A stretch of 64,000 nt of DNA from a virus, in the IMG/VR virus record IMGVR_UViG_3300025168_000032, positions 121,653-185,652 of that record; one strand, written 5' to 3'. Position numbers and translations under genes: made by a program. Shown here piece after piece: positions 8,548 to 56,667 of the stretch; position 1 is the first letter of the stretch; every line of letters starts with the position of its first letter. Below the pieces are notes generated by a model, which worked only from the letters and a program-made list of their open reading frames with translations, had not been told where the DNA came from and did no database searches.

Positions 8548-9279
8548 ATGATGGAAGAATATGATAAAAGTATCAATTTGTATAGTGACGGCATTGGTTC
8601 GGTATGTTACGTTGATCATATGGGCAGCGACATTACCGTTGTTAACAGCGCAAGGGTTAGTTTTGGTGTGCAAAAGTCTGATCTTGATGGGCGCGACAAG
8701 CGACTTATTAATTACCTTATCAAACATAGGCACACCTCTACATTGGAACATAATCTTGTTACCTTTAAATTTGTTGTGCCTTTGTTCGTTCGTTCTCAGC
8801 ACCATCGCCATAGAACATGGTCCTACAATGAGATTTCTAGAAGATATACCGACAAGGATCTACAATTTTATGAACCAAAGCAATTCAGAACGCAACACAA
8901 GTCAAACCGACAAGCTTCCAACCCAGACGAGTTAATAGATCCTAATTGGAGTCGTATATACAATTCAGTTATCCCAACTAAAACGAGAACCGCGTCTGAA
9001 GTGGTAAAAGCTCATCACGAATCAAGTCTAAAGCTTTTTTATACACTCATTGACAAAGGAGTGTGTAGAGAACAAGCTCGCGGAGTTCTACCACAGAACC
9101 TCTACACTGAATTCTACGGCACAGTAAATCTATCCAACCTCTTGAAGTTTATTGACCTTCGCACACACGAAGGAGCACAATGGGAGATTCAAAAAGTGGC
9201 GGAGGCCTGCTTGGAAATAGCAACAGATCTATGGCCGGTGACTGTTAATTCATACAGGAAACTGCGAGGTGGGACATAA
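8548..9279 (+). CDS. thyX: Flavin-dependent thymidylate synthase
   Basis: ARVSF, HTSTLEH, RHRTWSYNEISRRY, EQARGVLP, LR....AQWEI. Confidence 0.95.
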   Translation: MMEEYDKSINLYSDGIGSVCYVDHMGSDITVVNSARVSFGVQKSDLDGRDKRLINYLIKHRHTSTLEHNLVTFKFVVPLFVRSQHHRHRTWSYNEISRRYTDKDLQFYEPKQFRTQHKSNRQASNPDELIDPNWSRIYNSVIPTKTRTASEVVKAHHESSLKLFYTLIDKGVCREQARGVLPQNLYTEFYGTVNLSNLLKFIDLRTHEGAQWEIQKVAEACLEIATDLWPVTVNSYRKLRGGT

Positions 9280-9553
9280 GTTCAAAGTTGGAGATCTTGT
9301 GGAACTAAGTGATTTTGGCCAAACTATGGCTGGCGATTGGAGTATAAAATACGGCGTGGTAGTGAAAGGGCCCTATAGCATGGGATTACCGGGAGGCCAA
9401 GAGCCAGAGGGATACTACATAGCATATGATATAATGCTGGGTGATGAACTAATTAAGAGGATACCAATTCAATTTATTATGAGGATGGACAAAGATGAAG
9501 AAAATAATAAATCAGTGGAAAAAATGGTCATTCGAGACCCCAAAGAGTGGTAA
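9269..9553 (+). CDS. Small SH3/KOW-like protein (GDLV family)
   Basis: FKVGDLVEL...YGVVV. Confidence 0.55.
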   Translation: MGHKFKVGDLVELSDFGQTMAGDWSIKYGVVVKGPYSMGLPGGQEPEGYYIAYDIMLGDELIKRIPIQFIMRMDKDEENNKSVEKMVIRDPKEW

Positions 9554-10396
9554 ATGATAACTGAATACCATTTTAATAAGCTTAATATTGGTGGATCTGT
9601 GGAGTGTTTGCTTCATTCATTTATAAATGATGAGCAGGTTCTATTAATCGATCCGCTGTATCCTTTCCAGTTATCAACTGTAGAATATACTAGCAGTCTT
9701 AAGTTTTTGGGATACGACAACAATCGAAAGACTTACAAATCAGAGATGTGGGACAGATTGTCCTTCCTTTTATCAATGTCAGGTCAGATTATATTTCCTA
9801 ACATAGTAAAGACATATAGGGAGGAAAACAATAGGTTTATTCTTGTCACCGAGTCTAACAAAAGAATTATTATTACTTATGACGAACTCACTATATTCGA
9901 AAAAATGGGAGATTCCCATGTTAGTGTTTATGATTGGTTCAATGTTAGGTCTGGTAACAATCACACCTATGATGTTATCGAGGACAACAAGAGTGACTTT
10001 GTTCATACACTGCATTTCTATAAAGCAAACAGAATCGGGACCAACAGTTTCATGAGAGATATATGTGCAGAATCTCGATTGCCAACAAGATATTTGAATG
10101 ATGTGGGCCATACCGAAGGTATAGCTAGGTTGAAAACTATTAAGATGATGCTTGGGTCTGGCATAAGGGGCCAAAGCAATGGCTACGGAACAAAGGGACA
10201 ACAGGTTCATATGCCGATCAAAATTGAGCACACGCACCGTGAGGTTATAGAGGATTATACGCCCACTAGGACATTAGATGAAATTTTACAAGATAAAAGA
10301 AAGGAAGGTAAAGCATGGAATTTAGCGAAGAGGCTTTTTAGACATAAGCAAATTGCTATATTGCAAAAAAGTATAAGACTTCCTGCTTACCTATGA
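9554..10396 (+). CDS. Hypothetical protein, degenerate Rossmann-like N-terminus
   Basis: 280-aa ORF coupled to its neighbours; KLNIGGSVECLLHS. Confidence 0.55.
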   Translation: MITEYHFNKLNIGGSVECLLHSFINDEQVLLIDPLYPFQLSTVEYTSSLKFLGYDNNRKTYKSEMWDRLSFLLSMSGQIIFPNIVKTYREENNRFILVTESNKRIIITYDELTIFEKMGDSHVSVYDWFNVRSGNNHTYDVIEDNKSDFVHTLHFYKANRIGTNSFMRDICAESRLPTRYLNDVGHTEGIARLKTIKMMLGSGIRGQSNGYGTKGQQVHMPIKIEHTHREVIEDYTPTRTLDEILQDKRKEGKAWNLAKRLFRHKQIAILQKSIRLPAYL

Positions 10397-11292
10397 AAGC
10401 GTTCAGTTCACAAGCAAATTTCCATCTTGCAGGGATCATACCGGTTGCCGGCCAGCCTTTGGACTTTGGTATGCCATACCCTGATTGTTTGGTCCCAATA
10501 GCACCAGACTACACGATGATCGAAGCTGCTATCATTGAAGCGGCATTTGCTGGCTGTGATACGATATGGGTTATTTGCAATGATGATTTGGCACCTGTAG
10601 TTAGGCATAGGGTCGGAGACTTTATCCAAGATCCGGTGCATTTTTATAATAAATTTGATGCATTGCCGAGTCTTCGTAGAAAGCGTATACCAATCTATTG
10701 GGTCCCGGTCCACGCAAAAGATAGACACAGAAGAGATAGTCTTTCATGGTCAGTTCTGACCGGGGCAATCTCTTGCTTGAAGATCGCTAGTCAATTATCG
10801 AAGTGGTTAATACCAGAAAAGTACTATGTTTCGTTTCCTTACGGGATTATGGACCCAAGAAAACTACAAAAAGTTAGAGGCAAAATAAGAAATAAAAACA
10901 ACTTTTATGTGGTCTCTGAGGGAAAGACTGTGGAGGATAATATGTATTCTAGTTTTACTTTTGGTAAAGAAGAATTTATAATTTATCGTCGTAATGCTAG
11001 AAAAGGAACCGGAATGTACACTACAGAAATTGTTGATGAACGAGGGCTCCCCAGAAGCAAAATACCAGTAGAAGAAAGGTGGAGTGCGAGATTTTTTGAA
11101 CCAAAAGATGTTTTTTACGGTGTGAACGTTAACAACGGGTACCAACACAATGTAGAAAACTTTTATAATTTGGATGGCTGGGATGCTTATCGTGAATATA
11201 TGTTGTCCGATTTAGCTAGAGAAACACAGCGCCCAACAAAAGAATTGTTTTCTTACAGAGAATTCAACAGGATTGCAGAAGACCGAGACTAG
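10393..11292 (+). CDS. Nucleotidyltransferase-like (GT-A) protein with non-canonical motif
   Basis: AGIIPVAG, PDCLVPIA, MIEAAI.EA..AGCDTIWV, VGD pattern of the NTP-transferase N-terminus. Confidence 0.6.
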   Translation: MKAFSSQANFHLAGIIPVAGQPLDFGMPYPDCLVPIAPDYTMIEAAIIEAAFAGCDTIWVICNDDLAPVVRHRVGDFIQDPVHFYNKFDALPSLRRKRIPIYWVPVHAKDRHRRDSLSWSVLTGAISCLKIASQLSKWLIPEKYYVSFPYGIMDPRKLQKVRGKIRNKNNFYVVSEGKTVEDNMYSSFTFGKEEFIIYRRNARKGTGMYTTEIVDERGLPRSKIPVEERWSARFFEPKDVFYGVNVNNGYQHNVENFYNLDGWDAYREYMLSDLARETQRPTKELFSYREFNRIAEDRD

Positions 11293-11299
11293 TTAAGGT

Positions 11300-12927: not shown

Positions 12928-13221
12928 ATGCGTAAAAATAAATTTAAAGTTGGTGATTTGGTTGTTTTAACGGGGTTAGACGGCGTGATAGGGTATAAAC
13001 ATATAATCAATGGCGAGCTTGGGGTTATAATCGAAGTTATCTCATTACCAGCACCAGAAATACCTTTATCCATGGCCAGTTTCTTTTTTGATTATTTGGT
13101 TTTAGTCAGTGGCACAGAGATCATGCTGTTCGAGGAAGAATTGAGAGAATACCCGATAGATTACAAGCCGTGTGTGGCTTGCGACTGTGACCCGTGTGAT
13201 TGTGAGTGGGGCATAGAGTGA
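12928..13221 (+). CDS. Small SH3/KOW-like protein (GDLV family)
   Basis: FKVGDLVVL...LGVII; CxxCDCxPCDC tail. Confidence 0.55.
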   Translation: MRKNKFKVGDLVVLTGLDGVIGYKHIINGELGVIIEVISLPAPEIPLSMASFFFDYLVLVSGTEIMLFEEELREYPIDYKPCVACDCDPCDCEWGIE

Positions 13222-13409
13222 GGCAGATAAAAGGAAAATCGATAGCATTTATAGAAGCTTGTGGTCCAATACCAAAAGGAGCTAGGGGACTTTGCACAGA
13301 AGAGTGCCTTCAGACAAATACAATCAGAATATGGCTGATTCAGTCTGTATTCGGAGTTAACGAATTTGCCATCTCAAGAAAACATATCGGAAAAATCCAC
13401 ATTTTTTAA
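13206..13409 (+). CDS. Hypothetical protein
   Basis: ORF between coupled neighbours; start uncertain. Confidence 0.4.
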   Translation: MGHRVRQIKGKSIAFIEACGPIPKGARGLCTEECLQTNTIRIWLIQSVFGVNEFAISRKHIGKIHIF

Positions 13410-13596
13410 AGTTGGTGATCTGGTTCAATACTACGCTATGTCTGACGGTGACGGTGCATGGTTGTCTCCCGGATCATACGGCGTAATTCTGAAAATATCT
13501 GTAGAATTGGGCCGCGATGGCGCTGCACAAGTTCACTGGATAGACGGTAGCGGTATTTGTTTTATTTGTTGCAGTTATTTAAGAATAATTTTTTGA
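13366..13596 (+). CDS. Small SH3/KOW-like protein (GDLV family)
   Basis: FKVGDLVQY...YGVIL...VHWIDG. Confidence 0.55.
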   Translation: MPSQENISEKSTFFKVGDLVQYYAMSDGDGAWLSPGSYGVILKISVELGRDGAAQVHWIDGSGICFICCSYLRIIF

Positions 13597-14815: not shown

Positions 14816-17800
14816 ATGAACAACATTAAATTCGTTGGGCTTCATGCTCACTGTGGAGTTGGTTCTCCATTTGACGGCTTCGGATTCCCCGCTGACCACA
14901 TGGACTTCGCACATAAGAATGGCTGCGAAGCTCTGGCCTTGACAGATCATGGTAATATGAACGGGACAAGCTACCAAGTACTACACGCCAAGAAGATGCA
15001 AAAGCAAGGAAAGAGTTTCAAGCCCATATTCGGCGTCGAGGCGTATTTTATCTCTGATGTTGTTGAGTGGCGCAAGACCTACGAAGAGCATAAGGCTGAT
15101 AAGAAGAAAGCTCGCGCCCTTTCAAAAGAACAGTCAGGCACCAACATTGAAGCCGAAGGTGCCAGCAAGAGCAAGGGGACTGCAATTAATCGCTCTCGTC
15201 ACATTGTTCTTCTTGCAATGAGCCAAGAGGGTCTTAACAATATTTATAAGATGGTCTCAGAATCTTATACCGGAGACTACTTCTATCGTAAACCAAGGAT
15301 TGATTATGCACTACTTAACAAATATTCTAGCGGCGTTATTTGCCTTTCCGCTTGTCTTGGCGGTATATATGCTGGTTGCTATTGGGCCAACCGCGAAGAG
15401 GGCAAAGAGGCTGTTCTTGCGGCTATGCGAGACACCACCGAAAGAATGGTTTCAATCCTTGGAGACCGTTGGTACGGAGAACTTCAATGGAATAACGTCC
15501 CGGAGCAACATGAACTCAACAACTATGTTATCCAAATGCACGAAGAATATGGAATCCCGTTAGTTTCCACAGCAGATTCCCATTACCCAACACCAGACGC
15601 TTGGAACGACAGAGAACTATATAAGAGACTTGGCTGGCTTGGTAGGGGAAAACCCGAATGGCTTGACATGAATCTTCCGACATCAGTTCAAGAGATGGAG
15701 TATGAGCTTTATCCAAAGAACGGAGATCAAATGTGGGAAGCATATAAGAAATATTCTAATGATTGTGGAGTAAAATATGATGATAAACTTGTACTTGATA
15801 GCATTGAGAGAACTCACGATATTGCTTTCAACCGGATTGAAAGATTTTATCCTGATGATACCGTTCGTTTACCTGACTTTGTGGTTCCTGCTGGATATAC
15901 TGCCGATGATTATCTCAAGCGTATAGCCACTGAGGGTTTGTTTTCTTTACTTAAGAAGACTTCTCGCTTGGAGCACAACACTGAATATAAACTCAGACTT
16001 GACCACGAACTCAAAGTTATTGCTGATCGTGGGTTTTCTAAATACTTTCTAACCATGAAGGCAATCGCGGATAAAACAAATGAAATACAAATCTCTGGGC
16101 CCGGTCGAGGCTCTGCGGCTGGTTCTCTTGTTGCTTATGCTCTTGGTATTACTCAAGTGGACCCAGTTTCTTACGACCTCCTCTTCTCGCGGTTTTTACG
16201 TGCTGATGCTACTGATTACCCTGATATCGATTACGATGTGTCTGAGCCGATGGCTCTAAAAGAAAAACTGATCGATGATTGGGGTAGCAATGTTGTTGTT
16301 CCTATATCGAACTTCAGCACCTTGCAACTTAAGTCGCTCATCAAAGACATCAGTAAGTTTTATGACGTGCCATTCGTGGAAGCGAACGCAGTAACAAACA
16401 AGATGTTGTTTGAGGCTACACCGTTGGCCAAAGCCAAGCATGGCATCAAAGCGGGGGTATATAATCCTACATTCGACGAGGTTATCCAATACAGCGAGTC
16501 GCTCCAAAAATTTTTTTCCACATACCCCAAGATTAAGGATCATGTGTTGGGTCTTGTAGGGCAAGTCCGGCAGGTTTCCCGTCACGCAGGTGGTGTGGTG
16601 ATCGGAGAGGACTTGGACAAGTACATGCCACTCATAGCATCCAAGGGAGTCAGGCAGACTCCGTGGAGCGAGGGTATGAATGTTCGACACCTTGAGCCTA
16701 TGGGTTTCATCAAGTTTGATTTGCTCGGTCTATCGACTCTTCGTATGGTTGAGGATTGCATCTCCCTCATTCTCAAGAGACACCACGACATACCAGAGCC
16801 CACGTTTGCACAGATCAAAGACTATTACGACACCAAGTTACACCCAGATGTTATAGATTTAGGAGACCAGAACGTTTATGAAAATATATTCCACAAAGGA
16901 AAGTGGGTTGGAATCTTCCAGTTCGCGGAACAAGGCGCACAAAAATTTGCTCAACGAGCCAAACCAAGATCCATTATCGATATATCTGCTATTACTAGCA
17001 TATACCGTCCCGGTCCTTTATCGGCTGGTGTTGATAAGCAATATGTAAAAGCCAAGGAAGAACCCGAATCAGTCAAGTACCTCAACAAAATTGTTCGCTC
17101 CGTGACTCAGGAAACACATGGGTTCTTAATTTTTCAAGAACAAATCGCCATGCTAGCTCATAAGCTAGGTGACAATATCACCCTCGACGAAGGGAACCTA
17201 TTGCGTAAGCTGCTCACCAAGAAGGGAACAGGTAAAGGAAACGAGGACAAAGAACGGATATACGACAAGTTCATCAGGGGATGTAGAGACAAACGCATTT
17301 CGGATAAAAAAGCTAACGCTTTATGGACAACTTTCGAGTACTTTTCGGGCTATGGCTTTAACAAGTCACATGCCGTTTCTTATTCTATTATCAGCTATCA
17401 GTGCGCTTGGCTATGCAACTATTACCAAGCAGAGTGGACAGCAGCGTTCCTCGAAAGAGAACCAGAGTCGCGCAAAGAGAAAGCCATAAACCTCGCAAAA
17501 CAGCACGGTTTTACGATCAAGGATATCGACCTTAATACCTCTGGCATGAGGTGGGAGATACTTGATAAAAACACCCTTGTTGCCCCCCTGACGACTATCA
17601 AGGGACTGGGGGAGAAAGCCATTGAACAGATCCTCAACAACCGTCCGTTCAATACGGTGGAGGAGTTTATCTTTAATGAGGACATTGTATACTCAAAGCT
17701 CAACAAGAGAGCGTTCGATGTTCTTTGTAGAGCAGGAGCCTTACGGGATTTGGTTGACGAACGATTCACAGGAGACAAACATTTCTGGTCGGCAGTGTGT

Positions 17801-18247
17801 GTAGATCGCCCAAGAAAGCCCAAAAATCTCATTGAGAACATTGAGAAGTATGCACCGGAAGGTTCCTTCACAGAAGAGGAAAAAATTACCTTCTTAAGCG
17901 ACTTAACTGGCATCTTCCCTATGTCTAAGGTTATAACCCCTGACGTTCAAGCTAGAATTGATGAATGGTGTTCTCCTCCGATATCAGAATACGACCCAGA
18001 CCTTGGGTATTGTTGGTGCATCCCCCGCTCAATAACCCAAAAGAAATCAAAGAATGGAAAGAACTTTTATGTTGTTGAGGTAATAGACGCCAACTCTGTT
18101 TTGACCAAGATTCGCTGTTGGTCTGTCAAGCCTGAGCGGGATAACATCCACATTAATAGGCCATATATGATTAAGCCGAAATACAATGCAGATTGGGGAT
18201 TCAGCACTTATGGTATGGTAAACAATTCTTGGTTTTTGTTGGGATAG
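14816..18247 (+). CDS. dnaE: DNA polymerase III alpha subunit (family C)
   Basis: PHP domain (LHAH, ALTDHG, GVEAY, TADSHY), GPGRGSAAGSLVAY.LGIT, DYPDIDYD, SRHAGGVVI, KFDLLGL, GYGFNKSHA, OB-fold tail. Confidence 0.96.
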   Translation: MNNIKFVGLHAHCGVGSPFDGFGFPADHMDFAHKNGCEALALTDHGNMNGTSYQVLHAKKMQKQGKSFKPIFGVEAYFISDVVEWRKTYEEHKADKKKARALSKEQSGTNIEAEGASKSKGTAINRSRHIVLLAMSQEGLNNIYKMVSESYTGDYFYRKPRIDYALLNKYSSGVICLSACLGGIYAGCYWANREEGKEAVLAAMRDTTERMVSILGDRWYGELQWNNVPEQHELNNYVIQMHEEYGIPLVSTADSHYPTPDAWNDRELYKRLGWLGRGKPEWLDMNLPTSVQEMEYELYPKNGDQMWEAYKKYSNDCGVKYDDKLVLDSIERTHDIAFNRIERFYPDDTVRLPDFVVPAGYTADDYLKRIATEGLFSLLKKTSRLEHNTEYKLRLDHELKVIADRGFSKYFLTMKAIADKTNEIQISGPGRGSAAGSLVAYALGITQVDPVSYDLLFSRFLRADATDYPDIDYDVSEPMALKEKLIDDWGSNVVVPISNFSTLQLKSLIKDISKFYDVPFVEANAVTNKMLFEATPLAKAKHGIKAGVYNPTFDEVIQYSESLQKFFSTYPKIKDHVLGLVGQVRQVSRHAGGVVIGEDLDKYMPLIASKGVRQTPWSEGMNVRHLEPMGFIKFDLLGLSTLRMVEDCISLILKRHHDIPEPTFAQIKDYYDTKLHPDVIDLGDQNVYENIFHKGKWVGIFQFAEQGAQKFAQRAKPRSIIDISAITSIYRPGPLSAGVDKQYVKAKEEPESVKYLNKIVRSVTQETHGFLIFQEQIAMLAHKLGDNITLDEGNLLRKLLTKKGTGKGNEDKERIYDKFIRGCRDKRISDKKANALWTTFEYFSGYGFNKSHAVSYSIISYQCAWLCNYYQAEWTAAFLEREPESRKEKAINLAKQHGFTIKDIDLNTSGMRWEILDKNTLVAPLTTIKGLGEKAIEQILNNRPFNTVEEFIFNEDIVYSKLNKRAFDVLCRAGALRDLVDERFTGDKHFWSAVCVDRPRKPKNLIENIEKYAPEGSFTEEEKITFLSDLTGIFPMSKVITPDVQARIDEWCSPPISEYDPDLGYCWCIPRSITQKKSKNGKNFYVVEVIDANSVLTKIRCWSVKPERDNIHINRPYMIKPKYNADWGFSTYGMVNNSWFLLG

Positions 18248-18307: not shown

Positions 18308-18478
18308 ATGAATTTTAATAATTTGAATAAAGCCGTATTAATTGGTGATTTGGTTTGCTTAGATGGTGCTCACTTCATTGTCATAAATGTGAACAAAGAT
18401 ACAATACCTGAGATTTTAACCGGGATCTCTGTAGAGCATTCATACGAGCTTAATTTTACAATAGAAAATGTAGCATAA
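18308..18478 (+). CDS. 56-aa SH3/KOW-like protein (not in ORF track)
   Basis: MNFNNLNKAVLIGDLVCLDGAHFIVINV... Confidence 0.45.
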   Translation: MNFNNLNKAVLIGDLVCLDGAHFIVINVNKDTIPEILTGISVEHSYELNFTIENVA

Positions 18479-23970: not shown

Positions 23971-24129
23971 ATGAATGATCCCAAAGAACAATGGTTGGCA
24001 GTTGACAGTATGATTAAGAAACTTAAACGTCTTAAGTACTGGCTAACTTCCCTTGATCCAGAAAAGAAACATATTATTAATGCTATAAACGAACTCGAAC
24101 AAGCAAAACAACTATTGGAGGAAAAATGA
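23971..24129 (+). CDS. 52-aa helical hypothetical protein (not in track)
   Basis: MNDPKEQW...LLEEK; ATGA overlap with groEL. Confidence 0.5.
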   Translation: MNDPKEQWLAVDSMIKKLKRLKYWLTSLDPEKKHIINAINELEQAKQLLEEK

Positions 24130-25691
24130 CGAAACATTATAGCAATGGGCAGGAGCTTAACACAAGGATTCTGTCTGGGATTAATAAACTGGCAGACAAC
24201 GTAGCTACGACTCTCGGACCAAAGGGTCGCAACGTAATACTATTCCATAAGGAGCAGGGTATCCCTGTTATTACAAAAGATGGAGTAACTGTTGCTAAGT
24301 TCGTGGGCTTTGAAGACCCGATGGAAAACGTTGGAGCACAGATTGTAAAACAAGCAGCAGAGCAGTCTGCTACAAAAGCTGGCGATGGTACTACAACTGC
24401 TACTGTCCTGACTAGAGCAATCTTACAGAGGGCCCAGAAGTACCTTATGGCTGGTGTTTCTCCAATCGAGATCAAGCGTGGGATGGATAATGCCACAAAT
24501 CTTATTGTTGACCGTTTGAGTGAAATGTCCACCCCGATTCGATCGGAGGAAGATATTCGGCACATTGCTACGATCTCAGCGAACAACGACAAATCAATAG
24601 GCACTTTGATAGCCACAGCGGTTGATTCAGCAGGTAAAGATGGTTCTGTTCTTGTTGAAGAAGCAAAATCAATCAACACATCCTTAGATTTGATTGAAGG
24701 TTTCCGTTTTGATTCTGGGTATCTATCTTCCACCTTTATCAACAACGAGAGATCAGGGACCATTGAGTATAATAGTCCCCTCATTCTAATCACAGACGAG
24801 AAGATCGAAACCATCGAGCAGATATTACCCACCCTTGAGCTTGCGTCAAGAGACAACAGTCCGTTGTTGATTGTTGCAGATGTAGAAGGCCAAGCCTTGG
24901 CTGCTGTTATCGCCAACGCGGTTCGCGGCACAATGAAAATAGTAGCGGTTAAACCACCCAGATATGGAGAAGAGAGAAGGAACATATTAAAAGACATGGC
25001 TTTGAAGACTGGCGCTACCTTTATAACAAGAGAGAGCGGGGTAGCCCTGAGACAGGTACAATTGCCCCACTTTGGTAATTGTAAATCGATATCTATCAAC
25101 AAAGGATGGAGTACCATTGTCGGTGCAAGTGGCCCAGAAGAAGAAACAGAAAACAGGATTGAAGCACTGAAAGCAGAGATCAAACAAACAGACGACATCA
25201 AGGCTTGCGAGAGAATCCAAGAACGGATTACTCGTCTTGCTTCTGGTGTGGCTGTGATTCGAGTTGGAGCGGCAACAGAGATTGAAATGATGGAAAAGAA
25301 ACACAGGATTGATGATGCTTTGGAGGCTGTAAGATCAGCACAGGAAGAAGGAATTGTCTCAGGTGGTGGCATAGCCTTGATTCGAGCAACACAAGATCTA
25401 CTTGTGCGAACGGAGTCCGAAGAACAGTCTATCGGTGCCAAGATCATTCTTGAGGCCATTGAAGAACCTCTGCGACAAATGGCTAAAAACGCTGGAAAAT
25501 CGCCTGATATTCTTGTTGCTAGGGTAAGGCAGTGCTCCTCGAATATGGGCTATAATTTCATGACTGACACCATTGTGAACATGCTTGAAGAGGGCATAGT
25601 AGATCCAGCTAAGGTGACTCGCTGCGCGTTGCAGAACGCTGTCTCAGTCGCATCCACTTTGATTACCACCAGTCATGCTATTGTATCTTAA
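24126..25691 (+). CDS. groEL: Group I chaperonin GroEL
   Basis: TLGPKGRNV, ITKDGVTVAK, AGDGTTTA, KPPRYG.ERR, GGVAVI-like SGVAVIRVGAATE, DPAKVTR; no GGM tail. Confidence 0.96.
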   Translation: MTKHYSNGQELNTRILSGINKLADNVATTLGPKGRNVILFHKEQGIPVITKDGVTVAKFVGFEDPMENVGAQIVKQAAEQSATKAGDGTTTATVLTRAILQRAQKYLMAGVSPIEIKRGMDNATNLIVDRLSEMSTPIRSEEDIRHIATISANNDKSIGTLIATAVDSAGKDGSVLVEEAKSINTSLDLIEGFRFDSGYLSSTFINNERSGTIEYNSPLILITDEKIETIEQILPTLELASRDNSPLLIVADVEGQALAAVIANAVRGTMKIVAVKPPRYGEERRNILKDMALKTGATFITRESGVALRQVQLPHFGNCKSISINKGWSTIVGASGPEEETENRIEALKAEIKQTDDIKACERIQERITRLASGVAVIRVGAATEIEMMEKKHRIDDALEAVRSAQEEGIVSGGGIALIRATQDLLVRTESEEQSIGAKIILEAIEEPLRQMAKNAGKSPDILVARVRQCSSNMGYNFMTDTIVNMLEEGIVDPAKVTRCALQNAVSVASTLITTSHAIVS

Positions 25692-26000: not shown

Positions 26001-26342
26001 ATGAAAGTAAGAATCAACCAAGCAGTGAATCTCGATGAGGTTCCTGAGAAATTAACAGACATGATGTCTGATATAAGAAAAGAAATTGGTAAAGTGTCGG
26101 AATTATCTATGGAGGCAGAGTCTGCCTCGGAAATAGTTTCTGGTTCAGTTTTAAAATACCAGCTAGTATTGGAGATGCTTTTAGAAATAAAGCGTCAAGT
26201 GTCGGATGTTGACCAAATGGTAGAAGATATGTCATCCATTCTTAATGGGTACGTAGGCATCCTTGAGCCAAAACCTTCTACCCCCGTACCCGCACCTGAG
26301 CCCATACCCGAGCATGTTATAAAAGAACCAGATGCTGACTAA
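26001..26342 (+). CDS. Hypothetical coiled-coil protein
   Basis: GGAGG RBS; helical sequence. Confidence 0.55.
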   Translation: MKVRINQAVNLDEVPEKLTDMMSDIRKEIGKVSELSMEAESASEIVSGSVLKYQLVLEMLLEIKRQVSDVDQMVEDMSSILNGYVGILEPKPSTPVPAPEPIPEHVIKEPDAD

Positions 26343-26565
26343 GGGCGACCTTGTTAAGGTAAAACAGGACACTTTCATGTACCCTGCTACCTTAGAGCCA
26401 TGGTATATAACCAAGCTAAAAACACCACAATACGGCGTTGTTATAAAGCAAGAAAGCGAAACTGAGACTAAGGTTTTTGTGAACGAGCAAGCTTGGATCA
26501 TAAACAATAAATGTTTACAATTAGTGGGAGATTACAATGTTCATAAAGTTAAACAAAATAAATAA
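26332..26565 (+). CDS. Small SH3/KOW-like protein (GDLV family)
   Basis: KGDLVKV...YGVVI. Confidence 0.55.
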   Translation: MLTKGDLVKVKQDTFMYPATLEPWYITKLKTPQYGVVIKQESETETKVFVNEQAWIINNKCLQLVGDYNVHKVKQNK

Positions 26566-27691: not shown

Positions 27692-28384
27692 ATGTTGATA
27701 TTGTTATTATCGTGTTTGATATCTATGGAGGTAGATGATCAGGCCACGACTCTTTCGTTTGAAAACCAAGGTTTACCATCTTGTAATCAAAAGATTACAA
27801 GAGGTATGAAAAGCTCAGTCCGTATTGGGTTTTCGTTGGGTGATGGTTACGGAGGGTGGGGTTCTGGAAATTATTTTAAGCTTGGAAAGTACAAGTTTGT
27901 AATAACGGCAGCCCATGTTGTCGCGGAGGGAAACATATTCCTAATGGACAATGACGAAGAGATACCAGTGAGGGTAATATATACTAATGCAAGTAGGGAC
28001 ATCGCTATTGTCGAGCCTTTGACGGACCCGTCTTTTGAGCCTATAAAGCTTAAGATCAACGACGACCCGGATGTTGTAGGTAATTTAGTCAACTACACAG
28101 GTTTTCCAGATAACCTTGGGCAGACTACTTATACAGGTTTTGTGTCTAAAAGTAATTTAGAATCAATATTAATTCAGTCTTTTGCCCTTCCGGGGTCTTC
28201 TGGTTCTGTTGTGTTCGACAAGAAGGGAAGAGCAGTCGGGTTAGTTTCCGCTGTAAAGGTTATAGATACCCCGCTATCGCCATTCCCAGAGTTAGTTGAA
28301 ACCCTTGTTTATGTTGAAAGGTTTAGTTTTATAAACAAGAGTTTCCTTAAGGAGGTATTCATGAGTGCTGACGAAGGAAGGTAA
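27692..28384 (+). CDS. Trypsin-like serine protease with signal peptide
   Basis: ITAAHVV (His), DIAI (Asp), PGSSGS (Ser). Confidence 0.85.
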   Translation: MLILLLSCLISMEVDDQATTLSFENQGLPSCNQKITRGMKSSVRIGFSLGDGYGGWGSGNYFKLGKYKFVITAAHVVAEGNIFLMDNDEEIPVRVIYTNASRDIAIVEPLTDPSFEPIKLKINDDPDVVGNLVNYTGFPDNLGQTTYTGFVSKSNLESILIQSFALPGSSGSVVFDKKGRAVGLVSAVKVIDTPLSPFPELVETLVYVERFSFINKSFLKEVFMSADEGR

Positions 28385-36615: not shown

Positions 36616-36640
36616 ATATACATAACCAAGGAGAAAACTT

Positions 36641-36931
36641 ATGACCTTTCGCAATATGAAACAACTAAAATCTTTCAGTCACTCGCAAGGATGGCACTAC
36701 TTTGCTTGGGATGTTGTGCATGGTCGTCGAACCCAAAAGACCCCACCTTATGGAGGCTGCGTTTTTGTAGCATCGGAGAAACATAGTGATGGAACTCGAT
36801 ACTACGATATTCTTAGAATTATGCCCTTGGGTAACATTAAGTATGTACCCAGCAATAGGCCGTTCACGAACAGAAAGAAAGCTCACGCTTTTGCAAAAGC
36901 CTTCGCAAAGAAAATCTCACAACGGACATAA
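36641..36931 (+). CDS. Hypothetical early protein
   Basis: RBS; G..FV.SE......RYY motif; stop inside dyad copy 10. Confidence 0.6.
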   Translation: MTFRNMKQLKSFSHSQGWHYFAWDVVHGRRTQKTPPYGGCVFVASEKHSDGTRYYDILRIMPLGNIKYVPSNRPFTNRKKAHAFAKAFAKKISQRT

Positions 36932-36967
36932 ATTGTCCTACCCATTCAGACTGAAACAGCATATATT
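36924..36967 (+). repeat. Dyad promoter element, type A, copy 10
   Basis: GGACA-TAAAT-TGTCC-TACCCA-N17-TATATT. Confidence 0.9.
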
Positions 36968-36991
36968 ACTTATACCAACCAAGGAGAGAGC

Positions 36992-37216
36992 ATGTCAAAA
37001 CAAACAACATTCATCGTATCAGGCTGGGTAGAGCGTCACTACCGACTGGAAATAGAAGCTTCTTCTTATGAGGAGGCAGAAAGGATAGCAGAGAGCAAGC
37101 TTGATTATTCAGAGGGTTCCGAGCTTGATGATTATGAGGATGGTACACACGTTCGCATTAGTGATGTAGAGTGTGAAGACCCCGAATGGGATGAAGAATC
37201 CGAAGAAGAATTATAA
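36992..37216 (+). CDS. Small acidic early protein
   Basis: IEASSYEEAERIAE motif. Confidence 0.6.
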   Translation: MSKQTTFIVSGWVERHYRLEIEASSYEEAERIAESKLDYSEGSELDDYEDGTHVRISDVECEDPEWDEESEEEL

Positions 37217-37219
37217 AAC

Positions 37220-37263
37220 GGACAAAAAATGTCCTACCCAAACAGACCTAAACTACTTATATT
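37220..37263 (+). repeat. Dyad promoter element, type A, copy 11
   Basis: GGACA-AAAAA-TGTCC-TACCCA-N17-TATATT. Confidence 0.9.
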
Positions 37264-37312
37264 ATAGATACAAAACAAACACAAACTTTAACTTTCCAAA
37301 AGGAGTCCTATC

Positions 37313-38368
37313 ATGGCTATCGACTTTCGTACTTACAACTCAGTTATTCACCTCGTCATCAATGCAAAGTTTCCTATACTTATTCGTGGTCGTCACGGTG
37401 TTGGGAAATCAGAGCTTGTCTATAAGACAGCAAAAGACCTTGGTCTGCCTATCGTTGAGCGTCGAGCCTCACAGATGACAGAAGGCGACTTACTCGGCCT
37501 ACCAAAGGTAGAGAAGGGTATCACTAAGTGGCTTGCCCCTGAGTGGTTGCACAATGCCTGTAAAAACCCTGTGGTCCTTTTCCTCGACGAGGTTGATCGA
37601 GCTACAATGGAAGTCCGTCAAGGTATCTTTGAGCTTTGCGATAGCCGTAAAATCGCTGGCTACACCCTTCATCCAGATACTCTCATCTTTGCCGCTGTTA
37701 ACGGTGGAGAGCACGGTGCCCAGTACCAAGTAGGAGAGATGGACCCTGCTGAACTTGACCGCTACACTGTCTTTGATGTGGAGCCTACTACTGAAGATTG
37801 GCTGGATTGGGCTTCTGACCGTGTATCCTCAGAAGTCTGGGACTTTATTAACGCTAACCATAGTCATTTAGAGCACAAGGATGAGTATGAGCCTAACAAG
37901 GTTTACCCTTCTCGACGCTCTTGGGTTCGCCTTGACAAGGCCCTTAAAGGCTTAAAGCAAATCGAGCATGGTACTACACTATACCACCTTAGCCACGCCT
38001 TCGTAGGTATGGAGGCTGCGGTTGCTTTCAACGACTTCATCCAGAACTATGAACGTCAGGTCACTGTAGAAGACATCCTTGACAGAGGTAAGTTTGAACT
38101 CATGAAGGACTGGAAAAACAATGATCACCTTGCTCTTATCGAGAAGATGAAGGCAGAAAAGATATTTGATGAGGATCTTAGTGATGTTCGCACTGCTAAC
38201 CTTGCCGAGTATTTCGTAATTCTCCCAAGTGAGATCGCCATGACCATTTGGACCAACATCGGCAAAGGAAAAGTGCAGTCTAACATCGCAGCTTTCCACG
38301 GGCAAATCACAAAAGCTGGCGTAGTTGTTAAAATGCACCTTGTAAAGCTTCTATCGAAGGAGGTATAA
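37313..38368 (+). CDS. MoxR-type AAA+ ATPase
   Basis: GRHGVGKS, EGDLLGLP, LFLDEVDRA, FAAVN, MDPAELDR, PSRRSW. Confidence 0.88.
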   Translation: MAIDFRTYNSVIHLVINAKFPILIRGRHGVGKSELVYKTAKDLGLPIVERRASQMTEGDLLGLPKVEKGITKWLAPEWLHNACKNPVVLFLDEVDRATMEVRQGIFELCDSRKIAGYTLHPDTLIFAAVNGGEHGAQYQVGEMDPAELDRYTVFDVEPTTEDWLDWASDRVSSEVWDFINANHSHLEHKDEYEPNKVYPSRRSWVRLDKALKGLKQIEHGTTLYHLSHAFVGMEAAVAFNDFIQNYERQVTVEDILDRGKFELMKDWKNNDHLALIEKMKAEKIFDEDLSDVRTANLAEYFVILPSEIAMTIWTNIGKGKVQSNIAAFHGQITKAGVVVKMHLVKLLSKEV

Positions 38369-38369
38369 T

Positions 38370-38582
38370 ATGAATACCATATATGTAACACCAACCCCAG
38401 CTAACTATTTTACTACTGGACTTGGGGTATTCAACAAAGCTAAGAGAAGAAAGCCCAAGTCACGCAATGTTGTCCAGCAAAACCACATTCAACAGAATCG
38501 CAAGGCTGGTCCCCACAAAGACAAGAAGAAAGAACAAAGCAGAAAGAAATGTAGACAAAGAGTGAGAACGGACAGTTTTTGA
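38370..38582 (+). CDS. Small basic hypothetical protein
   Basis: AGPHKDKKK..SRKKCR; stop inside dyad copy 12. Confidence 0.5.
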   Translation: MNTIYVTPTPANYFTTGLGVFNKAKRRKPKSRNVVQQNHIQQNRKAGPHKDKKKEQSRKKCRQRVRTDSF

Positions 38583-38613
38583 CCTACCCACATACCACAT
38601 GCCGCGATATATT
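38570..38613 (+). repeat. Dyad promoter element, type A, copy 12
   Basis: GGACA-GTTTT-TGACC-TACCCA-N17-TATATT. Confidence 0.9.
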
Positions 38614-38639
38614 ATAGACATATCCAAGGAGTAATAGAA

Positions 38640-39821
38640 ATGACCAAGTTTGATTTAAATGAATACACGTTTTCGCTACTGAGACAGGAGCCGTTTTTTG
38701 CGGCCTTGTCTCGACGCATTACAAAGATGTCCACCAAGTCTATTCCTACCGCTGGTGTCTGTATCAACAAAAACACAGCCCAGTTTGAGATGGTATACAA
38801 CCCCGAGTTTATGGGGGACTTGTCCACAACGCACCTACAGGGGGTCTTGATGCACGAGTTCTATCATATCATCTTTGAGCATGTTACTGGTCGTTTACCC
38901 CCAGAAGGCATGAATATTATGTGGAACATTGCTACTGATCTTGCCATCAATAGCCATATAGCTGATAAACTTCCAGAGCAAGCCTGCATCCCCGGCCAAG
39001 GCCGATTTGAAGAGTATGAAACAGGCCTATCAGCAGAGCAATATTATTCTCAACTAAAGAAAGATGAGCAGTTTAAACCCAAGGACGGTGATGACGGTGA
39101 GGGCAAGGGAGGTGAAGGTCAACCCAACAGCCTTGATGATCACTCTGGTTGGGGTAATGCCGATGCAGAGACGAAGGCTATGGCTAAAGAGCGACTACGC
39201 CAAGCTGTAGAGGATGCGGCTAAAGAAGCCAGTAGCAAAGGTTCATGGGGTAGTGTATCCGCTGAGATGAGAAAGAAGATTATGGATATGATTAATCCAA
39301 AAGTCGATTGGAGAAAGGTGCTACGTTACTTCATTAAGACATCGCAACGCTCCAACAAGCGTAGCACCGTTCGACGAATTAACAAGCGTTTTCCCTACAT
39401 TCATGCTGGTAAGAAGGTGACACGTCATGCGAAAATCGCCATCTCTATCGATCAGTCTGGCTCTGTATCTGACAAGATGCTTGCAGCATTCTTCGCTGAA
39501 CTTGGTTCACTTGCCAAATATGCCGAGTTCACTGTCATACCCTTTGATACTGAGGTTATGGAAGAGCATGTGTATGTATGGAAAAAGGGCAAGCGTAAGA
39601 CGTGGGAACGTGTCATGTGCGGTGGAACCTGCTTTGATGCTCCCACCAAGTATGTAAACAGCAAACAGTTTGATGGTCATATAGTGCTGAGTGATATGTG
39701 TGCTCCTAAACCCATCCCTTCTAAGTGTCAACGCATGTGGATGACAGATACAGAGGGCAAAAACGCTCAATATTTCACTACAAATGAAAGGGTTATAGTC
39801 ATAGAGGGCAATAGTGAGTAA
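38640..39821 (+). CDS. Metallopeptidase-vWA protein (DUF2201-like), MoxR partner
   Basis: IPTAGV, HEFYH (HExxH), WNIATDLAIN, IDQSGSV (MIDAS), GGTCF, SD. Confidence 0.88.
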   Translation: MTKFDLNEYTFSLLRQEPFFAALSRRITKMSTKSIPTAGVCINKNTAQFEMVYNPEFMGDLSTTHLQGVLMHEFYHIIFEHVTGRLPPEGMNIMWNIATDLAINSHIADKLPEQACIPGQGRFEEYETGLSAEQYYSQLKKDEQFKPKDGDDGEGKGGEGQPNSLDDHSGWGNADAETKAMAKERLRQAVEDAAKEASSKGSWGSVSAEMRKKIMDMINPKVDWRKVLRYFIKTSQRSNKRSTVRRINKRFPYIHAGKKVTRHAKIAISIDQSGSVSDKMLAAFFAELGSLAKYAEFTVIPFDTEVMEEHVYVWKKGKRKTWERVMCGGTCFDAPTKYVNSKQFDGHIVLSDMCAPKPIPSKCQRMWMTDTEGKNAQYFTTNERVIVIEGNSE

Positions 39822-40038
39822 ATCCGAAAATAGGGCCGTTTTGAACGATTATTATATGTCCGTTGGGGACTTGGTTGAAGATAGAGTTGTAAATCCGAAT
39901 ACCATAGGTCAAAGGATAGGTATAGTCTTAAGGATCGACTCAGCTTGGACAGTCAACGCAACATATCTCGTTCAATGGAATGGCTGGGTTAATCCCATAC
40001 CATATAAAGATTGGGAAATCAGAAAAGTGGTCAAATAA
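39814..40038 (+). CDS. SH3/KOW-like protein
   Basis: SVGDLV..IGIVL..VQWNG; stop inside dyad copy 13. Confidence 0.6.
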   Translation: MSKSENRAVLNDYYMSVGDLVEDRVVNPNTIGQRIGIVLRIDSAWTVNATYLVQWNGWVNPIPYKDWEIRKVVK

Positions 40039-40072
40039 TGACCTACCCACCTACCCCTGTACGCGCTACATT
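40029..40072 (+). repeat. Dyad promoter element, type A, copy 13
   Basis: GGTCA-AATAA-TGACC-TACCCA-N17-TACATT. Confidence 0.9.
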
Positions 40073-40099
40073 ATATATACAACCAAGGAGAATAAGAAA

Positions 40100-40504
40100 A
40101 TGGCTTATTTGAAAACAGACCAAACAGTCTATTTTGCACAAGGTAACATTACTTCAATTGTTGAAAAGGTGGCCTTCCGCAAATACCTTTCCAAGCCCCG
40201 CAAGGATAAGAAGACTGGGGAACGTAGAAGGAAGTGGAAAGCAATGCCTTATGCAGTTTGTAAAGTGCTTTTAAGCGAAGACAACAGCGTCCCAGCCGAT
40301 ACACAATTTTTGATTGCTGGTTACCGTCTTAACCAAAAATACTTACAGGGAAAGATGATCCTTGTGATGGGTAACGAGCATATAGCAGACTATCAAGAAG
40401 AATGGGGAAACCAGTGGGTTAGCAACATGATTAAACAGGAGAATGAATATGAAGAACAACGAAAGAAAAAGGCGGCTGAGTATCGGGCGAAGAATAATAA
40501 ATAA
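40100..40504 (+). CDS. Hypothetical early protein
   Basis: CCAAGGAG RBS; the track's N-terminal extension is promoter DNA. Confidence 0.6.
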   Translation: MAYLKTDQTVYFAQGNITSIVEKVAFRKYLSKPRKDKKTGERRRKWKAMPYAVCKVLLSEDNSVPADTQFLIAGYRLNQKYLQGKMILVMGNEHIADYQEEWGNQWVSNMIKQENEYEEQRKKKAAEYRAKNNK

Positions 40505-40505
40505 G

Positions 40506-40601
40506 ATGGAAAATATAGTCTTAGGGATAGGGTTAGTAAGTTTTGTATATTGTGCAGTGATCAGGAGGAGTTTCGGCTATGGTAAAGAAAACAAACATTA
40601 A
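40506..40601 (+). CDS. 31-aa membrane peptide
   Basis: MENIVLGIGLVSFVYCAVIRR... Confidence 0.4.
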   Translation: MENIVLGIGLVSFVYCAVIRRSFGYGKENKH

Positions 40602-40794
40602 ACAGCGCAAATTTTCGATAAAACTAAAGACCTGCTTCGTGTTGCAGGTCCACTTAGAAGAACTCGATATGATAAAGGAAACAGCAAGTCAATTCCCTGA
40701 GCCTGTCCCTGAGCATGATGAGTTTATAGAAATGATGGTTGAAGCCCTCTGTAAGTCTCTCTATATCATTTTTCCTAATCCTTTTGACGCATAG
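40579..40794 (+). CDS. Hypothetical protein
   Basis: GGAGG RBS. Confidence 0.5.
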   Translation: MVKKTNIKQRKFSIKLKTCFVLQVHLEELDMIKETASQFPEPVPEHDEFIEMMVEALCKSLYIIFPNPFDA

Positions 40795-40802
40795 ACCCAA
40801 AC

Positions 40803-40846
40803 GGACACCTTTTGTCCTACCCAACCAGACCAGAACAAGATATATT
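40803..40846 (+). repeat. Dyad promoter element, type A, copy 14
   Basis: GGACA-CCTTT-TGTCC-TACCCA-N17-TATATT. Confidence 0.9.
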
Positions 40847-40870
40847 ATATATACCAACCAAGGAAACAAA

Positions 40871-41119
40871 ATGGAAAATCAAGCTGACCTTTACAAAACC
40901 ACCATCACCGATACTATTGATGACTTCCAGAGCTTAATGGCCAAAGACCTTGGTAATATTAAGAAGCTTATCAGCATAATGGAAGCAGACCCATCACGTA
41001 TGCCATCGCTTACAACCAACCTATCTCAGTTAGCCGCAAGCCTTCAAGAGAATACCAATGCAATGCGAGCACTGCAAAATGTGGCTCTGTATGTTGACAG
41101 AGAAGCGAAGTACAGATAA
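40871..41119 (+). CDS. Hypothetical helical protein
   Basis: CCAAGGA RBS. Confidence 0.55.
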   Translation: MENQADLYKTTITDTIDDFQSLMAKDLGNIKKLISIMEADPSRMPSLTTNLSQLAASLQENTNAMRALQNVALYVDREAKYR

Positions 41120-41120
41120 C

Positions 41121-41164
41121 GGACATTTTTTGTCCTACCCAAAGAGACTGAAACAAGATATATT
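41121..41164 (+). repeat. Dyad promoter element, type A, copy 15
   Basis: GGACA-TTTTT-TGTCC-TACCCA-N17-TATATT. Confidence 0.9.
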
Positions 41165-42117: not shown

Positions 42118-42384
42118 ATGAATCAAGACCTCATAAAATATAAAAACGTAAAAGTAGGGGACTTGTTAAAGAGTGAAAGCTTTAGAGGTAACCACGCAAC
42201 AGTATTAGATAAACGTTTAGAGTGGGACTTAATACCTACAAGCTGTGAATATATTGAATGGGGAATGATACAGGTGATTGATTGTTACGGTGATGTCTTC
42301 TGGTTTGAAGCTGATGAGCATGATGTTTATTTATGTTATCATCCTGATACAAAGGAGCCTGTAACACAGTGTGAAGATAAATAA
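42118..42384 (+). CDS. SH3/KOW-like protein
   Basis: VKVGDLL. Confidence 0.55.
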   Translation: MNQDLIKYKNVKVGDLLKSESFRGNHATVLDKRLEWDLIPTSCEYIEWGMIQVIDCYGDVFWFEADEHDVYLCYHPDTKEPVTQCEDK

Positions 42385-45576: not shown

Positions 45577-45649
45577 TGGAGAATAGCGGAATCGAACCGC
45601 TGACCTCCTGAATGCAAATCAGGCGCTCTCCCAACTGAGCTAATTCCCC
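45577..45649 (-). tRNA. tRNA-Ala(TGC), CCA not encoded
   Basis: GGGGAAT/ATTCTCC acceptor with G3:U70; CCTGA-TTTGCAT-TCAGG; GGTTCGATTCC. Confidence 0.95.
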
Positions 45650-51111: not shown

Positions 51112-51351
51112 TTAGTCATCCTCTGCGAGGGAATAGCTTTTATGTATATCTATTTTTTCTGATCTTTCTTTTTCGTTTTCCGCTGTTTGGAGTTGTTCTT
51201 TGTGAAATACAAATAATCTATCTTCACTCATAACGTAAACAACCCACCACTCTTCATCATATTCACTCTTTCTTACAAGAATGCCATGAGTGCCCCATGG
51301 CACATGAGTAGTAGCTATTGTATATACTTTTACAAGGTCTCCCGGTTTCAT
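51112..51351 (-). CDS. SH3/KOW-like protein
   Basis: MKPGDLVKV..HGILV..WVVYV. Confidence 0.65.
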   Translation of the reverse strand: MKPGDLVKVYTIATTHVPWGTHGILVRKSEYDEEWWVVYVMSEDRLFVFHKEQLQTAENEKERSEKIDIHKSYSLAEDD

Positions 51352-51373: not shown

Positions 51374-51601
51374 ATGGACAGGGATTTAAGAATTGGTGAT
51401 TTAGTAATCATAAAAAAAGAATTACAAGAAATTGTTGGTATTAAACATATTGGCATTATAATTGCTGAGGCTCGAATAATACCGTCTGAAGTTATAGATT
51501 GCGATATAGAGGAGATAGATTCATTTAATATTTACTTTGCAGATTTGGATACACTATATACAATCCCTAAAGGATGTGTAGAAAAAGTACCCGATATGTA
51601 A
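51374..51601 (+). CDS. SH3/KOW-like protein
   Basis: LRIGDLVII..HIGIII..IYF. Confidence 0.65.
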   Translation: MDRDLRIGDLVIIKKELQEIVGIKHIGIIIAEARIIPSEVIDCDIEEIDSFNIYFADLDTLYTIPKGCVEKVPDM

Positions 51602-55957: not shown

Positions 55958-55993
55958 GTTTATTACCACACTAGTTATAATAAAGAGGTGTTT

Positions 55994-56311
55994 ATGATGG
56001 ATCAGACATATTATTCAAAGGAATATGAGGCAAACTTCATCAAATTGGCTGCTAAACTGAGTGGTTGGACCAAAGCTAAGGATGGCACTCTGTTAGAACC
56101 AGCAAGAATACTTGGAGGCGGCAAAGGTTTCTATTGGTCTATCTCAGATAAAAGTTTTGTGTGGGTTGATAGAGATTTGGAATGGTACCTTGTTAGCGGA
56201 GTCCCTCCTGATGATCAAGGCAGGTTATGTTTATACTCTCCGTTTATCTTTGCAAGTGGTGTTATTTGTAGAGTTCCACCAAAAGAAATAGAACTTATAG
56301 GATTTAATTAA
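55994..56311 (+). CDS. Hypothetical protein
   Basis: GAGG RBS; CTAGTTA at 55971. Confidence 0.55.
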   Translation: MMDQTYYSKEYEANFIKLAAKLSGWTKAKDGTLLEPARILGGGKGFYWSISDKSFVWVDRDLEWYLVSGVPPDDQGRLCLYSPFIFASGVICRVPPKEIELIGFN

Positions 56312-56436
56312 TGGGAAAAGCAATATTTAATATTATTGGGCTAATGTGCGTTCTGTTAGCTTATGTAATTATAGGTTTTGAACCTGTGTGTTTAGCGCTA
56401 ATATACATGCTATACATAGAATATAGATATGATTGA
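56311..56436 (+). CDS. 41-aa membrane peptide
   Basis: MGKAIFNIIGLMCVLLAYVIIG... Confidence 0.4.
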   Translation: MGKAIFNIIGLMCVLLAYVIIGFEPVCLALIYMLYIEYRYD

Positions 56437-56667
56437 AAACAACTACCCATTTGGATCTTCTATTGTAAAAGATATTAAAGAAGGGGACCTTGTTCACTGG
56501 AATGATTGGAAAGTTATAGATAAGAAACTTACGAAGAAAAAGAAATTTGGCGTGTTTTTAAAAAAAAAATTAAGTTCGTAGGCAATAGAGAGGTTTTATA
56601 CGGAATTATTATATCAGCAGTGTCTGGTGATATAATTGAAATCCTAGGTACGAGATTAAAAAAATAG
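56429..56667 (+). pseudogene. SH3/KOW-like gene split at an A10 homopolymer
   Basis: Frame 0 stops at TAG 56579-56581; the -1 frame continues IKFVGNREVLYGIII...LGTRLKK. Confidence 0.55.

Follow-up and report, generated by a model that had tools for sequence, protein, structure and literature searches.

The window analysed here, the last 64 kb (positions 121653–185652, plus strand) of the 185,652-bp IMG/VR virus record IMGVR_UViG_3300025168_000032, carries a family of small genes, encoded as stand-alone open reading frames (ORFs), whose products of 49–97 amino acids (aa) have a GDLV-type first strand. An earlier note on this DNA had counted about 29 such paralogues. A profile seeded with 16 clear members and iterated as a hidden Markov model (HMM) over the 1336 ORFs (≥35 aa) of the whole record converged on 30 family members, 29 on the plus and one on the minus strand, all with E ≤ 1.3e-8; the next-ranked ORFs followed after a gap, at E ≥ 0.11. 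The window holds 25 of these, all among the ORFs of the note, and five were found elsewhere with the HMM (record positions 6959, 61829, 65576, 65925 and 66079). The remaining four ORFs of the note occupy the ranks directly below the 30 members, and because of their sub-threshold E-values (0.11–0.89) we treat them as borderline ORFs whose membership is not shown: 56429–56581 (E 0.11, with GDLV at residues 19–22), 28615–28821 (E 0.14), 29053–29310 (E 0.34) and 28365–28604 (E 0.89), all on the plus strand, as are the features below unless stated otherwise. The original count therefore holds for 25 of the 29 ORFs. Translation of the 29 listed starts gave GDL[VIML] near the N-terminus in 27, the exceptions being 28365 (VGTLL) and 29053 (QGKLV); the ORF at 51112, which had been given as a plus-strand start, reads only on the minus strand (51351 to 51112).

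Fifteen members are packed between 31720 and 36584, the number originally reported for this region, and form four groups of overlapping genes delimited by repeated promoter-like modules. Two members, 31720–31887 (marginal) and 31877–32095, lie in a cassette that opens at module 31485. Four members (32204, 32364, 32555 and 32748; array 32204–32912) are placed between modules 32086 and 32900, five (34948, 35097, 35237, 35383 and 35564; array 34948–35779) between modules 34880 and 35767, and four (35835, 35996, 36205 and 36408; array 35835–36584) between modules 35767 and 36572. The other members of the window are scattered. The gene at 9269–9553 encodes a 94-aa protein consisting of a barrel and a low-confidence C-terminal tail, and is supported by the HMM, by a structure prediction and by matches to small beta-barrels (SBBs). 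Both 12928–13221 (97 aa) and 13366–13596, whose start codon is uncertain and whose motif lies at residues 14–20, are supported by the HMM and by leave-one-out scoring, as are 28853–29056 and 42118–42384 (88 aa). Weaker cases are 18308–18478, directly after a DnaE-type polymerase gene and behind a TTGACA-like promoter motif, 26332–26565, which is marginal in leave-one-out scoring (10.4 bits) and has a 96% identical orthologue in the related contig L005, and 51374–51601, for which the support lies mainly in the N-terminal strand. The gene at 39814–40038 (HMM) overlaps the end of a DUF2201 gene, and 51112–51351 on the minus strand was recovered by the HMM and by a six-frame search. The acidic tail of the 12928–13221 product is an addition to the barrel, is rich in cysteines (C-x2-C-x-C-x2-C-x-C) and may bind metal.

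Profile E-values obtained in this way are circular, and membership was therefore retested by leaving each member out. All 30 members (10.1–43.7 bits) then outscored the best non-family ORF (≤10.0 bits), with a slim margin for 26332 and 31720. When the GDLVx strand was removed from both model and query and each comparison was set against 200 shuffles, 17 of the 30 members still beat 200/200 shuffles; six failed (9269, 31720, 35835, 51112 on the minus strand, 51374 and record 61829) and several others passed weakly. Independently, a search of all six frames with alignment A1 matched the record at 26 places, 25 on the plus strand and one on the minus strand, and the motif GDL[VI] occurs 34 times in the three plus frames versus four times in the minus frames. 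An artefactual or non-coding origin of the ORFs is ruled out by this strand bias of the matches and by the dN/dS (ratio of nonsynonymous to synonymous substitution rates) values given below.

The AlphaFold2 (AF2) model of 32204 (57 aa, with A1 as the alignment) has a mean predicted local distance difference test (pLDDT) score of 90 and five strands. The model of 9269, one of the failures in the strand-deleted test, has a pLDDT of 81 and five strands in the same order as in 32204; its first loop contains an additional short helix, and it has a low-confidence tail. SH3-like small beta-barrels are defined by about 50–60 residues whose five antiparallel strands close into a barrel, with a short 3-10 turn ahead of the last one, and the two models conform to this description. 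Both match the same set of such barrels, namely the Spt5/NusG KOW domains, Tudor, PWWP, PsaE, NdhS, the Mind-bomb repeat, R67 dihydrofolate reductase (DHFR) and YorP of phage SPbeta, with maxima (VIA) of Z 8.9 for 32204 and Z 6.9 for 9269; hundreds of SBB chains match at Z ≥ 5. Foldseek comparison of the model with the PDB gave nothing below E 0.01 (top row 5ycq, E 0.013), and so the fold assignment rests on the VIA Z-scores and on matches in BFVD and the ESM Atlas, where the nearest models are uncharacterised viral proteins with a top identity of 58%. On the basis of these predictions, built from the family alignment, we consider a barrel fold of the SH3/KOW/Tudor class to be established. This agrees with the earlier proposal of one homologous family of such barrels, to which the profile search and the two models, one typical and one divergent, both point; the two predicted folds agree in strand order and do not show the heterogeneity that the proposal had left room for.

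Within this fold class the closest known structures are KOW domains, and one explanation for the family is that its members, as KOW-like factors, dock on RNA polymerase, the ribosome or RNA, as do the KOW domains of NusG, Spt5 and uL24 and the Tudor-like domains of UvrD, PcrA and CarD, and thereby redirect host transcription or translation. In structure, the closest matches are indeed Spt5 KOW (4zn3; Z 8.9, root-mean-square deviation 1.5, 53 residues) and NusG KOW (2xhc/1m1g; Z 7.7, up to 31% identity over 49 residues), the UvrD/PcrA Tudor domain appears in the Foldseek list, and the family shares with the KOW domains of NusG/Spt5 and uL24/eL21 a five-stranded barrel of about 50 residues in which a first strand G-D-x-V is followed by a Gly-rich hairpin, the GD.V strand and G..G hairpin recalling the KOW motif itself. 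A profile search of the PDB sequences also ranked uL24 and NusG, without significance (E 0.5–0.8), and found nothing significant. However, the PsaE, NdhS, Mind-bomb and PWWP barrels score almost equally, so that the match denotes a fold class rather than KOW. Pfam KOW (PF00467) matched none of 23 members at E ≤ 0.1, and none of 10 members at E ≤ 1. The family further differs from KOW in that its members are stand-alone proteins of 49–97 aa, outside any NGN-linked or ribosomal context, and many carry a net charge of −6 to −10, which is ill-suited to RNA binding. Thirty paralogues with unrelated loops are moreover unlikely to use one docking site, and we judge this explanation improbable. A search for fused homologues of greater length returned none, which is weak evidence on this point.

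Other known families were no closer. SH3_15 (the Mind bomb repeat), DUF1918, DUF4314, SH3-C_UBE2O, DUF2158/YodC and HspQ/YccV gave weak sequence echoes (E 0.002–0.04), with best scores of 14–19 bits against Pfam cut-offs of 21–27, in one or two members each. The weak Pfam echoes, SH3-C_UBE2O, SH3_15, DUF4314 and Tudor_RapA, are all SH3-like, and YodC or HspQ are the automatic names that JGI gives to some homologues. YorP of SPbeta matches the family models at Z 6.1–6.5. Leads from the Atlas language-model search (DsrB, DfrB, UBE2O-SH3, DUF4314 and DUF1918) all scored below 0.9. Among the PHROGs no family reached the threshold, and the five scattered matches (E 0.0016–0.01) were all to unnamed PHROGs. 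Of the four or five residues of a Tudor aromatic cage, the family conserves one aromatic throughout, at column 46 (W/F), and a second in part, at column 57 (F/Y). Bacterial Tudor-like domains have no aromatic cage. Judged from these searches, the family is uncatalogued, as no Pfam or PHROG family claims its members. None of these small SH3-like families is known to have expanded to 30 copies in a single phage genome or to form chains of overlapping mini-genes.

In 112 distinct members from the record and seven related loci, aligned to the profile, conservation is confined to about 20 columns (M-K/Q-V-G-D-L-V, G..G-I/V-I/V-I/V, V.W.D-G and L-E-V-V), and the others hold about 1.3 bits or less. 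The conserved positions sit on the strands and turns of the barrel, and length varies through insertions of up to 8, 8, 19 and 14 residues at four inter-strand sites. Variation in length and sequence among paralogues is thus concentrated in loops on a shared scaffold, as the earlier note had supposed. Paralogues within the genome are at most 41% identical, and there are consequently no recent duplicates. Net charges of the members extend from about −10 to +10, a spread that points to diverse partners.

The terminal part of this alignment is shaped in addition by a dual-coding junction of about 31 nt. In the example at 35226–35256 the upstream gene ends in ...EAVCK-stop, accompanied by a GGAGG site and by the downstream start MQVGDLV; further copies lie near 35372, 35987, 36194 and 36397. 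Array genes end in ...L-E-A-V-C-K-stop, and the bases that encode this end, TTGGAGGCAGT-ATGCAAGTAGGTGATTTAGTA, also provide the next gene with its GGAGG ribosome site, its ATG and its MQVGDLV. Since the conserved start region carries a stop in both other frames (TAG and TGA), the upstream tails recur: ...VCK in the arrays of the record, ...NESR in the related contigs L023/L024 and in members outside the window, and ...ENK at 32204. The three further members that stand in tandem outside the window (record 65576–66261) have the tails ...VINENR/VINESR. After de-duplication, 42 of 48 members with a family start 9–40 nt downstream have Glu at column 63, versus 11 of 42 members without one (Fisher p = 2e-9; the orthologues are not independent), and array-terminal members have L-K in place of L-E. 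Because the Glu tracks a following family gene, the Glu of LE.V, which had been read as part of a protein motif, is largely the Shine-Dalgarno site of the next gene. The 127-aa product P0009, from a Logan contig, is a two-barrel fusion in which the junction lost its stop (...LEVVKQVKVGDLV...), and thereby shows that junction mutations are able to fuse neighbouring mini-genes. Member 32364–32558 has a doubled first-strand motif at its N-terminus, VKINDLV-KVGDLV, which looks like the scar of a junction crossover. The junction, with stop, ribosome site and start in about 31 nt and stops in the other frames, illustrates how overlapping coding can be combined with recombination.

The modules that delimit the arrays have the form GGWCA-N5-TGWCC-TACCCR, a palindrome followed by a promoter-like element, as at 34880–34900. 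There are 15 exact or near-exact copies within 29.6–41.2 kb (29666–41141), with 0 expected by chance. Six of them, at 31485, 32086, 32900, 34880, 35767 and 36572, mark the borders of the four arrays with their 15 members; 39814 and 42118 belong to other cassettes. TTGACA-type motifs precede 18308 and 28853, and 51374 begins 12 nt past the late-like motif ACTAGTTA. The earlier statement that family genes stand behind all three promoter classes is hence plausible at the motif level, where different promoter-like motifs precede members, and goes no further than that level; a scan with sigma-70 and terminator consensus patterns found sites no more often than in shuffles and was uninformative. Module 31485 falls inside the longest ORF call for a DUF7417 gene, which therefore probably starts later. 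The neighbouring cassette genes gave no PHROG or Pfam assignment and nothing that hints at function.

This arrangement resembles that of T4-type phages, in whose hyperplastic regions promoter-early stem-loop (PeSL) cassettes are shuffled as modules (Arbiol et al. 2010, PMC2839356; Comeau et al. 2014, PMC4122927). Here too, the phage has a T4-type capsid and a variable region in which many copies of a palindrome and promoter-like module separate small cassettes of mostly ORFan genes, and close relatives differ at the boundaries formed by the repeats, both modules and junctions. We therefore regard the GGWCA-N5-TGWCC-TACCCR copies as candidate PeSL-type terminator/promoter modules. They differ from PeSL in that the module is not a sigma-70 consensus promoter, and in that the cassettes hold a second, coding-level repeat of about 31 nt linking one protein family, whereas PeSL cassettes hold unrelated ORFans.

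Related loci were obtained through a homologue look-up and comprise L005 (a 41-kb ENA contig with about 90% nucleotide identity), L014 (a 140-kb JGI contig) and the Tara contigs L011–13 and L017–19. The profile found 10–20 members per related locus, all on the plus strand; in the 3.1-kb contig L023, 12 of the 16 ORFs are family members. Across eight sources the members form 59 clusters at 60% identity, and only 30 of the 59 are present in the record. Outside the array 34948–36584 the family genes are syntenic with L005 and 85–98% identical, like their neighbours. In that array the order differs in L005, some L005 members are absent from the record, and 35835 and 35996 are absent from L005 yet 84–92% identical in the more distant L011/L012. 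Colinear DNA blocks between the record and L005 break at gene junctions and modules, and the copies of the junction cross-match at 88–94%. This turnover bears on the possibility that adjacent, coupled paralogues form homo- or hetero-oligomers, such as Sm/Hfq-like rings or DfrB-like tetramers, an array then providing the parts of one complex or a few. Genes of stoichiometric partners typically overlap in this way, at stop/start junctions that include a ribosome site, some adjacencies are shared by several relatives (e.g. 35383–35564 and 35996–36205), and the R67/DfrB barrel is found both among the structural matches (Z 7.2) and among the language-model leads (score 0.84, a lead only). Close relatives, however, lose, gain and reorder single members, which an obligate complex would not tolerate; in addition, the AF2 models have no N-terminal Sm helix, and a DfrB active-site motif was not seen by eye, with no formal test made. 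We consider complexes of this kind highly doubtful.

In the comparison with L005, 15 family genes have a dN/dS of 0.13, 25 neighbours one of 0.10 and small neighbours one of 0.15; pooled over 44 orthologue pairs of the family, the ratio is 0.16 in strands and 0.24 in loops. Amino-acid differences between orthologues amount to 11% in core columns, 14.5% at other strand positions and 21% in loops, and the loops of the 36408 group are almost unchanged across six phages. Paralogues are thus conserved between strains to the same degree as their neighbours, loops included, and the hypervariability that had been expected did not appear. It is the gene content that differs between related phages, so that the family is conserved gene by gene and variable as a set. 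Purifying selection is thus ordinary and strain-level hypervariation absent, and the diversity of the family stems from old divergence and whole-gene exchange. A diversity-generating retroelement (DGR) as the origin of the loop variation is ruled out by the conserved orthologue loops and by the absence of a reverse transcriptase: the 92%-complete record gave no RVT_1 match, and control genomes gave matches.

The same data speak to a non-adaptive explanation, in which the arrays would mostly be evolutionary by-products of an easily recombining, translation-restarting junction, at which mini-genes could multiply and drift while the phage gains little. By design the junction propagates itself, with a ribosome site, a start codon and stops in both other frames, content turns over rapidly between relatives, and all neighbouring genes are ORFans without a PHROG match. 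Against it stand the dN/dS values of 0.13–0.24, equal to those of neighbouring genes, and the single paralogues kept at 81–93% identity, loops included, in phages in which shared small flanking genes have about 50% identity and large ones 83–90%. Recent duplicates are lacking (≤41% identity). Such an origin of the arrays is in our view improbable.

A search of 1.84 billion representatives returned 419 clusters at E ≤ 1e-3, mostly of 50–75-aa single-domain proteins starting with MK/Q-V/I-GDLV and largely from Tara and other marine samples. The few long matches are multi-repeat SH3_15, DUF1918 or RING proteins that sum weak repeat scores. The nearest cultured relatives searched, Flavobacterium phage immuto and Microcystis phage Mel-JY01, yielded no match to the family profile, nor did the uncultured phage LR756508, and the same search gave 26 matches in the record itself; tblastn of three members against INPHARED, a collection that may lack records close to this genome, yielded no credible match.

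From these results we propose that the genes form an anciently diversified family, each gene encoding a stand-alone small beta-barrel of the SH3-like type of about 50–95 residues, and that most copies are packed as translationally coupled, overlapping mini-genes in cassettes bounded by promoters, within a variable region rich in ORFans. The scaffold would consist of strand and turn residues (M-K/Q-V-G-D-L-V, G..G-I-I, V.W.DG and L.xV), and the four loop sites would hold the differences among paralogues. Purifying selection on each paralogue implies that each has its own stable job. The repertoire would be altered by gain, loss and reordering of whole genes, with the conserved junction and the palindrome/promoter modules as the sites of recombination. 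As to function, the proteins may act during infection as single-domain binders, adaptors or inhibitors, on different macromolecules of the host or the phage; the observations fit small modules of this kind whose surfaces differ from paralogue to paralogue. A single shared site on RNA, RNA polymerase or the ribosome is disfavoured by the heterogeneous charges and unrelated loops, and obligate complexes by the coming and going of single genes.

Several points weigh against this proposal. In the strand-deleted test, about six members share little beyond the N-terminal strand, and the overlapping junction DNA imposes part of the apparent protein conservation at both termini. Both AF2 models took the family alignment as input, which biases them towards a common fold; with Z < 9 the structural matches are generic, and sharing a fold is no proof of function. 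The faster change of loops than of core columns (21% versus 11%) is uninformative on binding, since any protein shows it. With these points considered, we hold the structural and evolutionary description of the family with high confidence, and the proposal as a whole, of real genes, one ancient barrel family, whole-gene exchange and a binder role, is moderately well supported. The binder or inhibitor role by itself is tentative. The bolder idea of a natural, recombination-shuffled library of single-domain binders, about 30 per phage, that neutralises variable host defence or takeover targets seems to us rather unlikely. Should it be true, the marine pan-repertoire would contain hundreds of loop specificities, exchanged as whole plug-in cassettes through a universal junction, as a gene-level counterpart of combinatorial immune repertoires.

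The family is in any case a new, large family of known fold within a PeSL-like cassette system. It amounts to about 30 genes per phage and hundreds of clusters at 50% identity in ocean metagenomes, yet it has no catalogue entry and no cultured representative. If its members are specific binders, they would offer ready-made, very small and well-folded scaffolds with natural targets in marine bacteria, and a clear example of phages trading accessory functions as whole mini-genes.

The record is 92% complete by CheckV and encodes a major capsid protein of the T4 gp23 type (PF07068, 205 bits; record 97790–99600), whose closest cultured relatives are the capsid proteins of Flavobacterium phage immuto (48%), Microcystis phage Mel-JY01 (47%) and Rhodothermus phage RM378 (40%). 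Megablast of 31–37 kb against the INPHARED copy revealed no relative at the DNA level. The phage is an uncultured marine member of a distant T4-type lineage. Besides the gp23-type capsid protein it has a 1143-aa polymerase of the DnaE type (Pol III alpha; 14816–18247), at most 31% identical to any phage record, a full GroEL (24126–25691) and ThyX (8548–9279). A MoxR-like AAA_5 ATPase (351 aa) is followed by a DUF2201_N/DUF2201 protein (393 aa) at 37313–39821; this pair is kept at 87–98% in all related contigs, and the stop of the DUF2201 gene is overlapped by family member 39814. The vicinity of these genes raises the possibility that the family consists of small virion or assembly accessory proteins, such as decoration proteins, or modules that serve the phage GroEL or the MoxR/VWA pair as chaperone adaptors. 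Family genes are found next to those for the MoxR-like AAA_5 and DUF2201 proteins and not far from GroEL, and the top Foldseek row, 5ycq, is an SH3-like specificity factor for Lon protease (E 0.013). That match is not significant, however, most copies reside in promoter cassettes among ORFans and not in late operons, and thirty different adaptors for one machine would be without precedent, for which reasons we give an accessory role of this kind a very small chance.

Strong GGAGG ribosome sites are used throughout, at 35220–36420 and elsewhere. Flavobacterium, the host of the nearest cultured capsid relative, belongs to a group in which Shine-Dalgarno sites are mostly avoided, so the phage may infect something other than a member of the Bacteroidota. 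The window also encodes three tRNAs, for Ala-TGC, Arg-TCT and Thr-TGT, at 45577–45649 (minus strand) and 60402–60554 (plus strand).

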